From Lytechinus pictus (Eukaryota), in the NCBI RefSeq assembly GCF_037042905.1, contig NC_087251.1, positions 18,664,001 to 18,728,000 on the forward strand: 64,000 nt of DNA. Reading direction: 5' to 3'. Each line of letters starts with the position of its first letter. The first letter of the stretch is position 1. This document shows, piece after piece, positions 31,801 to 34,800 of the stretch. The position numbers and the translations under genes were made by a program. A model generated the notes under the pieces. It searched no databases, was not told where the DNA came from, and was given only the letters and a program-made list of their open reading frames with translations.

Positions 31801-34800
31801 TTAAGCTTATATTAAAGATTATATTACAACTTTCATTTAAATCAGTTTTTTCCCTAGAATGCTTTTTGCCTTTTTTTATGGTTTAGCTATTTATAAAAAA
31901 AAGCGTAATAATTCTATCGTTCCCTTCCATAATTCTCATGTTTCTCTTTGTAAAAATAAAAAGTTTTATAGGGGGGTATTATGGACTTAAATTCTGTGGC
32001 GCTAGATCTAAATCTCTGCTTTCCCGTACACATATCTTTTACAATATGGTCTATTATGACTCGTTTTGTGGAATGTATACATGTAGATACACATCAGAGC
32101 TTGTAATAATGTCTAGACAATGTTACAAAGGGATGAAGGAAATGCTTAATCAATACATTTTTCATCATGTATAGGGTTTTCTGATTTTTATCTCTTAGCT
32201 TTGCTGCTATAGGGAGCTTATTGAGGAAATGAGAAAGTTCTGCATTGCTTCCTCCTACTTCCAATGGGAAATTTGTAATATGAATGATTGATTATTGAAA
32301 GATGATTTTAACAAGCTTTGTCTCCCCCAATTAAGCTTTACGCATCAAAGTATCTTGTTTCATATCTAAAAATATTTCACATTCGTGGTTGTGTTTGAGT
32401 AAGAGTGGGAACTATGACCGGAAAGGTCTTCAATAATAGCTTGATTATTTCAAATCTGGATAATTCATTGAGTAAACTAAAGTGACCATGACATAGCATT
32501 GGTATGGAGGTATTTATGGGTCAATCATGTGGACATGAGATCATTCCTGGTCTGGATAAGTATCTCATTTCACAGATAGTTTGATATGGTAAGCATAAGT
32601 AAAGGAGGGGTGGAAAGATGTGCCAAGTATCTTGTCACCGTGGTCATTGAGATGGGGCTTATCAGTAGACAATAAGTGCGAGAGTATATGAGGAAGATGA
32701 TGACAGTGATGTTTGCAGTACTGCTGTGACATCATGAGAAGCAAGGGGTACTCGTGACCCGTCAGGAATGGGGAGCATGCGTGCGTTTCTTCTCTAAATA
32801 ATTGATTTAATGGGGTAGATAACCCATGCGCATGGATGCAACTCGGTCTACGCTCTGATGTCTTGACAAAAAAGTGAACCCGTCGGTGAAGTTCGCTACT
32901 TCTGTCTTGTGATTCAACTACTGAGGTATTCAGAGCAGACGAGTGATGTTATCATAACACTTACTCATCAGCTGATGGATTATTGATGACTTGCGCTTGT
33001 CTTTAGAGCCAAAGTGACATCCATAAATTGGAAGTAGAGATAGTATTCTTTTAGAAGTGAAGGTTGGAAACTTTTCATCACCTTTTTAGCACCTCTTCTA
33101 ATGAGTTTGGTGATTTGATTTACTCAGAAGGAGCACAGCATGGCCTATCGAGGACAGGAATGTTTTAACTCTTTTAATGGAAGCAGAGCTGATGGTGGTA
33201 AGACAGTATCAAAGCTTACTGTTCAACTTGGCAGAAGCAATGGGAATGTAGCAACAAGTGGACCACAGGGTGGTGGATTAATGAATCAAAGAAAGCAAGT
33301 CAGCTTTGGCAATAATCAGAGCAGCAGACTGGGCGGAGATGTCAACGTCATAGGCGGCAGCAAAAACAAATCAGTGACGGTAGCACCCAAGATAGGCAAC
33401 AATTACACAGCAGATAGTGGCTGTTCGTGGGGCGGAGCTGAGGGTGGAAGTGGTAGTCAGAGTCGAGAAGTGGGATTAATCACGCCAATCAGGGATCACG
33501 AGAGATGCGTTAATGAGCAAGGATCCTGTCAGACCATCAGCATGTCAACAGACAACATGAATGCCATGTCGGATAATAATGATATGCCGGCGTTAGACCA
33601 AGGTCCTGCAGCCCCTTTCAATGAATCGTCAGCCATGCTGCCTGACATTGAAACCAACAAACTCCACCCTCGAGTCTTAAATGGTAATTCTGTCCATGAA
33701 GAGGATTCAAGTTCCATTAACAGCTCAAATGTAAGTAAGGTACAGTTTGAGGAACCTACTGTTATGAACATTGATCCGAGCTTTGAGAGTGCTGAAGAAA
33801 AAGCTAGAGCCTTAGCAGTAGGAGCGATAGAGAAAGCTCTTGCTTCACAGCTTGTATCGTCTGTGACAGAGGCAGCAGCTAAACTTGTGAGTGACGAAGC
33901 CAAAGAATCAATTGATGACAACAAGATGGATACCAAACAGTGCCAGGAAAATGGAGGTTTAACAGCAAATGAGTTTCCAAATTTATCTGACAGTAAACTG
34001 ATCTCCAGCTTGAATAATTTTGAAGAAATCACAGCTCTTCAAGAAAGTTCAACCAACTGCCAAGATGCAAATGCAAATGAAGTCTCTGATAAGAAATCTG
34101 TTTTCATAGAGAACAGCAATTTATCAGATAATGTGAATTCCAACAATAACACACAGTTACCACCAGTGCCGCCCAAACCAGCCAAAGGTCTGCCTAAACA
34201 ACCTGATGGTGCATCAGGACCAGAACCTAAGAACACTCTGCAACAACCTCCATTGCCAGAAGAACATGGTGAGGTGCAGGAGTTCTTCAGCTCTTCCCAA
34301 ATTCTCGTCTCGGACGACATTATCGACTGCCTACCTGAGGTTGAAGAAATGAGTAATGGAGCACCACCATCACCCCCTCTGATGGCATGTCCTGATCAAA
34401 CCTTAGCAGAGAGTCAAGAGCAACATGTTGGTGGCACTTCTTTGCCTTTGCCAGGAGACACAGAAGGTGAGCAAAAACCCAGCATTAATGAACCACAAAA
34501 CAATGAAGAAGAAAACAAAATGGATGTGAATAGCACTAAGGATATTAAGAATGAAATGACAGAAGCTACTAAAGAAAATGACATTGAAGATGCTGATAAA
34601 ATCATGGACAAAGCTGAAAGTGATGTCAAAGGGGAAAAAGAAGATGGTTTTATTACTTCTGATGTGTTGAGTAAGGAGGACTGTGCTATACATGCAAATC
34701 ACGTCTCTCAAGTACATGGCGATATCAAAGAAAATATCAAGGATAGTTCTGTAAGTGCTATAAATAACGATTCAAAAACCACCAATGTTACAGAAATAGC

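Follow-up and report, generated by a model that had tools for sequence, protein, structure and literature searches.

A Conserved, Probable Partner-Docking Helix in the Disordered N-Terminal Arm of a Most Likely EVH1-Less Ena/VASP Isoform of the Sea Urchin Lytechinus pictus

The Ena/VASP Locus

The DNA analyzed in this study is a 64-kb window (contig NC_087251.1, positions 18,664,001 to 18,728,000, forward strand) of the 812-Mb genome assembly of the sea urchin Lytechinus pictus, an intron-rich stretch with about 34% G+C that carries the exons of an Ena/VASP gene and, between them, a giant open reading frame (ORF) with a conserved hydrophobic segment, the subject of this report. A Pfam scan of the window covered 134 stop-free plus-strand ORFs of at least 48 amino acids (aa) from position 14381 onward, out of 174 on that strand, and matches were obtained in two of them, to WH1/EVH1 at 19834-20274 (E 2.1e-14) and to VASP_tetra at 56660-56866 (E 7e-15). 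Further exons were placed by alignment to P0002, which RefSeq lists as an “uncharacterized protein” from the sea urchin Diadema setosum, and by contigs of a sequencing run, X1, described below. The features of the gene, in window coordinates, are as follows.

7652..7816, + strand: upstream EVH1 (WH1) exon of the Ena/VASP gene, matching WH1 profile positions 9-61 (E 0.0022, 27.1 bits, above the family cut-off); the bounds are those of the match, not the exon ends.
20011..20182, + strand: second EVH1 exon, with a WH1 match and an X1 contig; it ends CCAG/gtacgt at a phase-1 donor.
33140..35312, + strand: giant exon (724 codons plus one base) with its ATG at 33140, most likely serving as an alternative first coding exon.
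35313..35318, + strand: GC-type splice donor, AAG/GCAAGT, phase 1, read from the sequence and supported by the X1 contig, which follows the genome as far as 35312.
42369..42426, + strand: small exon, likely shared, with a phase-1 acceptor and a phase-2 donor (ttttccag/CTCCAG...GAAAG/gtaagg).
43761..43831, + strand: small exon, phase 2 in and phase 1 out (tgtag/G...CAAG/gtatgt), placed by its best local alignment to P0002 (score 51).
47942..48306, + strand: proline-rich and G-actin-binding exon with a phase-1 acceptor, found by tblastn against P0002 aa 721-827 (E 3e-39); 48306 is a provisional 3' bound.
Near 48822-48956, + strand: F-actin-binding region, aligning to P0002.
56705..56851, + strand: Ena/VASP tetramerization-domain exon, found by the VASP_tetra profile (E 7e-15) and by tblastn.

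The WH1 exons upstream and the VASP_tetra exon downstream lie on the same strand at one locus, and in a genome-wide profile search the VASP_tetra match was confined to this single locus, which places the giant ORF within the long EVH1-EVH2 intron of the sole Ena/VASP gene. The features of an Ena/VASP EVH2 region are present, as the proline-rich, G-actin-binding and F-actin-binding exons align to P0002 and the tetramerization domain was recognized by profile. By these EVH1 and EVH2 features, the gene is an ordinary member of the Ena/VASP family (Enabled, Mena, VASP, EVL), with which it shares the EVH1 exons, the proline-rich region, the G-actin motif AAAKLKKV, the F-actin region, and the tetramerization domain. 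The isoform discussed here differs from the family pattern in that it most likely starts in a 2.2-kb alternative exon without EVH1. A first-pass annotation of the stretch had assigned the giant ORF to an actin polymerase, and its place in the Ena/VASP gene bears this out. That annotation was also right in describing an Ena/VASP isoform; what it missed is the gene context, in which the giant exon most likely stands in for the EVH1 exons and is not an addition to them.

The Giant Exon and Its Splicing

The giant ORF (33119..35362, + strand) extends over 747 aa from stop to stop in DNA with about 40% G+C. Its ATG at 33140 stands in the context agcATGg, with an in-frame TGA 24 nt upstream (33116-33118). 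The residues E, G, K, P, Q, R, S, D, and N make up 63% of the translation, and the mean Kyte-Doolittle hydropathy is -0.79. No Pfam domain was found in the giant exon (the best match was Pox_G7, E 0.42), nor was there any match to Rfam, and no tandem repeats were found in it.

Most likely, the giant ORF represents an alternative first coding exon (33140-35312) from which an isoform devoid of EVH1 arises. One indication comes from the Diadema setosum model P0002, which runs from the homologous Met through the giant region into the proline-rich, EVH2, and VASP_tetra parts, with no WH1 match. The start Met is invariant in all four sequences of alignment A1 (the window together with the relatives P0001, P0002, and P0003), although this argument is weaker than it appears because for two of them the sequence is an ORF call, which starts with Met by construction. 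An internal cassette exon was considered and rejected. The sole strong acceptor in the region (ttactcag/AAG, between 33127 and 33128) would yield an exon of 2185 nt, a length not divisible by three. No pyrimidine tracts precede the phase-compatible AG sites, all ten of those listed between 33119 and 33400 being purine-rich across the 15 upstream bases shown. With the EVH1 exon joined at the 33128 acceptor, the frame would hit a stop within some 13 codons.

The reading phases on the downstream side fit a junction with the body of the gene. The EVH1 exon 20011-20182 and the giant exon both finish in phase 1 with G and match the phase-1 acceptor at 42369, and the phases remain consistent from 42369-42426 through 43761-43831 into the proline-rich exon. 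In addition, the translations of the small exons align with the P0002 segment that follows directly after its own giant exon. On this sequence evidence, the EVH1 exon and the giant exon are both likely to be spliced to exon 42369-42426. The isoform that opens with the giant exon would most likely keep the proline-rich and EVH2 parts of the protein, responsible for actin binding and tetramerization, and be devoid of the EVH1 targeting domain.

Run X1 is stored as assembled contigs, and its label as RNA is a guess. Its depth was 0 in the intron bins 23802-25802, 27137-28470, and 31139-33139, and its EVH1 contig of 372 letters covers exactly 20011-20182 on the genome, with unlike letters on both sides; in these two respects X1 behaves as RNA. 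A second contig, of 1828 letters, follows the genome over 33513-35312, whereupon its remaining 28 letters depart from the genome at AAG/GCAAGT. This departure at 35312 shows that the giant exon is transcribed and spliced at the GC-type donor. The intron after the giant exon thus begins with GC, a non-canonical donor of the GC-AG type whose use is backed by the X1 contig. Beyond its donor, each of the two X1 contigs extends by exactly 28 letters; with the AG that closes both exons, this makes 30 letters. Such a length would be expected if two branches merged into one shared downstream exon in an assembly from 31-letter words, which we take to be the word length of the assembler behind the X1 contigs. 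Contig depth was 16.7 over the giant exon and 239.8 over the EVH1 exon, a poor measure of expression that suggests a minor share for the giant-exon isoform in the X1 sample. Between the X1 contig and the window there are 12 differences in the giant exon, nine of them residue-changing; that none falls in the helix is anecdotal.

Relatives and Conserved Islands

Relatives of the giant exon were sought with a word-indexed search followed by an exhaustive profile search of 1.84 billion representative proteins. Three were found in all, and the exhaustive profile search added nothing further. P0001 shows 64% identity in the profile search and 66% in alignment A1, and has six near-identical cluster mates; P0002 is 37% identical to the window in A1, and P0003, which has one cluster mate, 34%. 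No paralogues were found genome-wide, and the exon is single-copy in its own genome. By sequence comparison, the giant exon is a lineage-restricted, fast-evolving region, with no detectable relatives beyond these three sea-urchin-type sequences.

Within the exon, alignment A1 shows six conserved islands in a poorly conserved background, the mean identity of the exon to the window being 0.41. One of the islands is the hydrophobic segment. The other five, at aa 20-32, 110-130, 331-347, 392-413, and 609-656, are likewise conserved in all four sequences, and one of them reads LTTT...Q.PLSPI.EEPRS...DLSNTS.SS..HQ. in the alignment. The elements of the exon to which the following sections refer are these.

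33290..33307, + strand: RKQVSF, aa 51-56, the best candidate of RVxF type, fitting the strict motif in this species only.
33737..33748, + strand: KVQF, aa 200-203, which matches the loose form of RVxF, lacks conservation, and fails the strict motif.
33791..33892, + strand: conserved hydrophobic predicted helix, aa 218-251, with an invariant core at aa 222-246; its helicity is a prediction from sequence.
34157..34180, + strand: LPPVPPKP island, aa 340-347, with P341-P347 invariant in four of four sequences and L, L, L or Y as the preceding residue; a candidate proline-motif ligand.

A PPVPPKP core preceded by L or Y presumably fits the proline-motif classes recognized by SH3 and EVH1 domains. 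If it were a ligand of EVH1, proteins that carry this domain could bind the isoform that is devoid of it.

The Conserved Hydrophobic Segment

The first-pass annotation had singled out the 34 residues at aa 218-251 as the main hydrophobic-periodic segment of an otherwise disordered ORF. The residues and coordinates it gave, counted from the ATG at 33140, are correct (KVQF at aa 200-203, KQVSF at aa 52-56, the 34-mer at aa 218-251), and the two sub-patterns it described, A..LA..AI..A and A..LV..VT..A, are both found in the 34-mer. Its view of the ORF as otherwise disordered agrees with the composition, with the lack of a Pfam domain, and with the position of the segment as the most hydrophobic 30-aa window of the ORF (aa 222-251, Kyte-Doolittle +0.85, against 0.46 for the next window). 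It had further proposed to ask whether the motifs are conservation peaks among orthologues, and for the helix this is the case, as the segment is the top peak of the exon among the four sequences. The 30-aa window from aa 219 has an identity of 0.73, the best of all non-overlapping 30-aa windows in the exon, and the 34-mer ranks third of 691 windows by conservation. Fourteen columns are invariant: A222, A224, A226, A229, I230, A233, L234, A235, S236, V239, V242, T243, A245, and A246.

The segment is also periodic. In all four sequences, the hydrophobicity power was 10.9-13.1 at a period of 4.0 residues, compared with 2.0-6.8 at 3.6 and 4.5-8.9 at 3.5, and the period-4.0 power of the 34-mer was equalled or surpassed by 135 of 20000 shuffles. 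Heptad periodicity was weak, with a power of 6.1 at 3.43 residues and 6.8 at 3.5, against 12.0 at 4.0. A peak at 4.0 residues, which is the spacing of the hydrophobic “pairs” of A-kinase anchoring proteins (AKAPs), agrees with the AKAP pattern and makes an ordinary coiled coil of heptad type less likely. Conservation and periodic pattern are read directly from the aligned sequences, whereas the helical state and the docking function discussed below are predictions built on them. Searches with the segment returned only EnY2 (0.071) and LepB_N (0.19) from Pfam, which were taken as noise, and no usable match among ESM Atlas and PDB sequences. The patterns of WH2 motifs, vinculin-binding sites, and the WASP C-helix were compared with the helix by eye and did not fit.

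Candidate PP1 and PKA Docking Motifs

As possible docking sites for protein phosphatase 1 (PP1), the first-pass annotation had named KVQF, which precedes the helix, and KQVSF (aa 52-56, nt 33293-33307), both of which fit the loose RVxF consensus. According to PMC4794898, about 25% of proteins contain that consensus, [RK]x(0,1)[VI]{P}[FW], by chance, and the strict PP1 motif is [KR][KR][ACHKMNQRSTV]V[CHKNQRST][FW]. Chance expectation for the RVxF and AKAP patterns was estimated from 5000 shuffles. The RVxF pattern used in the first-pass annotation occurs twice in the ORF against a shuffle mean of 0.14 (probability of at least two, 0.012), and a looser [VIL]/[FW] form has a shuffle mean of 0.37 (P = 0.059). 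The hexamer RKQVSF meets the strict six-residue motif, of which 0.0014 occurrences are expected from composition. In the nearest relative, all seven members of the P0001 cluster read RKQVGF, which fails the strict motif, and the motif has no occurrence in P0002, P0003, or P0012. KVQF aligns to EVGK in P0002 and to ENQC in P0003. With conservation percentiles of 55 for KVQF and 47 for KQVSF, the two motifs are of median conservation and absent from P0002 and P0003, so that the idea of a conservation peak fails for them. RKQVSF may have arisen recently as a lineage-specific site, or it may be a lucky match picked out in hindsight; KVQF beside the helix has the loose pattern as its sole backing, and in the alignment both RVxF-like motifs are outside the conserved module.

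The AKAP hallmark, as set out in PMC12083921, is a helix of 14-18 residues with conserved hydrophobic positions 2, 5, 6, 9, 10, 13, 14, and 17 and a less conserved polar face; RI-selective AKAPs carry F/Y-A at helix positions 1-2. Setting position 1 at aa 221 gives every one of the four species hydrophobic residues at seven of the eight contact positions (A, L/I, A, A, I, A, L, with Q/E at the eighth), and helix positions 1-2 read K-A, K-A, E-A, and T-A, so the F/Y-A of the RI type is lacking. Invariant residues occupy six of the eight contact positions and three of the ten others (p = 0.077 in a one-sided Fisher test, with no correction for having tried 19 registers). Over aa 222-250, the contact face has nine invariant positions of 15, compared with five of 14 elsewhere. 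The AKAP regular expression matches three times in the ORF against a shuffle mean of 0.45, and since 35% of the 5000 shuffles contain at least one match, the expression by itself is a weak guide. In the literature, a search for this expression led to an unrelated peptide. The Pfam family RII_binding_1 (PF10522) gave no match to the helix at E up to 10, and its sole hit genome-wide was on another contig, at 17.2 bits and below the cut-off. No hit in the genome was obtained with AKAP7_RIRII_bdg (PF10470), and the curated RII-binding families cover only some AKAPs.

Candidate receptors for such a helix are encoded in the genome. They include a D/D domain of RII type (L001, positions 1492-1629, minus strand), whose best PDB matches are to the RII-alpha subunit of protein kinase A (PKA; E 1e-11), and a D/D domain of RI type (L003, E 1e-17). 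Another possible receptor for AKAP-like helices is L002 (G000:C8:10554507-10557617), a ropporin/SPA17-type gene with an RIIa domain of the R2D2 type, whose ORF contains MAVPFSNTKLRVPRGFQNLLEGLAREVLRNQPDNIYAFAAIYF.

The first-pass annotation had drawn part of its case for kinase anchoring from Ena/VASP proteins being classic PKA substrates, a rationale that loses weight in this gene. There are no R[RK]x[ST] sites in the giant exon; exon 43761-43831 reads NRKSG where the Diadema model has RRNT, and the site matching vertebrate VASP Ser239 (48280-48306) reads KLKKVNR, with no serine, where Diadema has KLKKVSR. From these differences, the classical cyclic-nucleotide kinase sites of Ena/VASP appear to be poorly conserved among the relatives.

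Function of the Segment: Weighing the Explanations

We consider it probable that the segment is a conserved partner-docking helix, folding on binding, in the disordered N-terminal arm of an EVH1-less Ena/VASP isoform. In the mechanism we propose, the alternative first coding exon would open an isoform with a long, fast-evolving, disordered N-terminal region in place of EVH1; the helix segment would fold upon binding a partner; and the helix together with the five other islands would supply docking or targeting contacts where EVH1 is missing. Through the tetramerization domain common to all forms of the protein, these contacts could also be added to mixed tetramers. Several observations weigh against this reading. 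In three raw RNA runs (X20-X22), of which about 6% of each was read, depth was 0 over 33140-35140 while the EVH1 exon reached a depth of 10-19 at 20019, so the giant exon is absent or rare in these samples and the isoform is either restricted to a tissue or stage or rare. The 5' end of the transcript was seen in none of the runs, and X1 has no contig over 33140-33512. The conservation argument is drawn from four sequences, and the helical state of aa 218-251 is deduced from sequence alone. Invariant residues, small ones among them, lie on all sides of the predicted helix, and the 100-degree hydrophobic moment of aa 218-240 is low (0.06-0.22); invariance all round combined with a low moment would fit burial in a bundle or self-association as well as it fits docking by one face.

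A serious rival is that the helix serves self-association or intramolecular packing, for instance through small-residue contacts of the AxxxA type or against another island, which we regard as rather unlikely but well worth keeping in view. Beside the invariant Ala, Ser, Val, and Thr on all faces and a low moment at high mean hydrophobicity, it would account for a conserved length of about 25-29 residues, longer than the 14-18 typical of AKAP helices (PMC12083921), and the protein is already a tetramer, which provides a high local concentration. The weak heptad periodicity of the segment speaks against it, as does the lack in the exon of a second hydrophobic segment of like strength. If the helix instead docks a partner, the best single candidate is a docking dimer of RIIa fold, such as PKA RII forms through its D/D domain, or the dimer of a related protein of the ropporin/SPA17 type such as L002; as a specific proposal we hold this to be tentative and on the unlikely side. 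The hydrophobic contact positions shared by four species, the pairs of small aliphatic residues at period 4.0 that few shuffles equalled, and the presence in the genome of RII-type and RI-type D/D domains and of an R2D2-type gene all point towards it, and a precedent exists in MAP2c, where an RII-binding helix lies in the disordered N-terminal region of a cytoskeletal protein (PMC11367651). Since most AKAPs are said in PMC12083921 to have had late, independent origins in vertebrates, a lineage-specific, convergent echinoid AKAP would be conceivable, if unproven. The counterweights are the ease with which shuffled sequences match the regular expression, the weak bias of invariance to the contact face, the failure of RII_binding_1 to match, the departure from the RI type at positions 1-2, and the weak state in this species of the PKA sites that would be expected, NRKSG and KLKKVNR.

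The full model of the first-pass annotation, in which one isoform anchors PKA through the helix and PP1 through KVQF and/or KQVSF, would require this AKAP part to be true as well, and a combined PKA/PP1 scaffold is unlikely, in our estimate very much so. It can draw on two loose RVxF matches where 0.14 are expected, on the strict match of RKQVSF with its far lower expectation, and on AKAP149, a precedent for holding both PKA and PP1 according to PMC2150688. However, both motifs are missing from P0002 and P0003 and have median conservation, the RKQVGF of the nearest relative fails the strict motif, the loose consensus is common by chance, as cited above, and the motif was picked after the sequence had been read. 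It seems scarcely credible, finally, that the ORF is non-functional, either a chance open frame or one whose conservation stems from constraint on DNA or RNA. Zero coverage in the three raw RNA runs, the nine residue-changing differences among 12 between X1 and the window, and the lack of a Pfam domain would suit such an explanation. Set against them are a 747-codon open frame at this G+C content, the preservation of this frame in three other lineages (34-66% protein identity, six conserved islands), the splicing of an RNA-like contig at a consensus GC donor, and a RefSeq protein model in Diadema setosum.

Other Elements in the Intron

Two hairpin-like inverted repeats were observed in the intron, one at 35451-35623 with 70-nt arms that are 91% complementary, and one at 29100-29975 with 161-nt arms at 29431-29929. 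RNA depth at the two repeats is very high on either strand, and sharp loose ends were seen at positions 29385, 29975, and 35623. The repeats resemble multi-copy intronic elements of the miniature inverted-repeat transposable element (MITE) type, and the RNA depth at the hairpins is uninformative on the Ena/VASP gene. In each of the three raw runs, the intronic stretch 21800-23800 is covered at moderate depth on both strands, and X1 contigs lie at 22178-23126; a 140-aa ORF within it (22146-22565) had no Pfam match. This stretch could be a repeat or an unannotated transcript.

Comparison with Known Systems and Biological Meaning

Vertebrate Mena has a large alternative exon, which is internal and added to EVH1, and WAVE1 is an actin regulator that is also an AKAP. 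No natural EVH1-less Ena/VASP isoform was named in the titles and opening abstract lines returned by a full-text literature search, and a literature search on sea-urchin Ena/VASP isoforms returned no papers, a further one general papers. The closest functional analogue of the helix may be the N-terminal RII-binding helix of MAP2. According to PMC11367651, which also cautions that predicted complexes of this kind need experimental support, the RII-binding helix of MAP2c has 21 residues in six turns, near the core of about 25 residues in the sea-urchin segment, and in both cases a single hydrophobic helix that folds, or would fold, on binding sits in a long disordered N-terminus. The difference is that RII binding was measured for MAP2c, while the segment described here is known from its sequence, and there is no sequence homology between the two. 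AKAP149/D-AKAP1 carries an RII-binding helix and the RVxF-type motif KGVLF on one scaffold, as described in PMC2150688, and this is the architecture that the first-pass annotation had proposed. Here, by contrast, the RVxF-type motifs are not conserved among relatives, and both interactions are predictions from sequence.

In its boldest form, the proposal would be that sea urchins independently made their single Ena/VASP gene an AKAP: an alternative promoter would exchange EVH1 for a disordered arm of 724 residues, the helix would dock the D/D dimer of RII or an R2D2 protein, and RKQVSF would have been added recently in this lineage as a PP1 dock. We regard this scenario as speculative and rather doubtful. 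Were it true, there would be up to four kinase-anchoring sites on each actin-polymerase tetramer. Even the narrower AKAP reading, if correct, would put a kinase or an RIIa-fold protein directly on Ena/VASP tetramers, and with PKA RII as the partner the helix would represent a convergently evolved invertebrate AKAP located directly on an actin polymerase. Such an AKAP would be experimentally tractable, given how accessible sea-urchin embryos and sperm are as systems.

The usual picture of Ena/VASP proteins is that of actin elongators targeted by EVH1, and a natural isoform without this domain would represent a different way of steering the same polymerase. In place of EVH1, this isoform would carry a long disordered arm with six short islands, among them the helix and the invariant PPVPPKP. 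If the helix binds something other than PKA RII, it would still be an obvious handle for finding the partner of the isoform.

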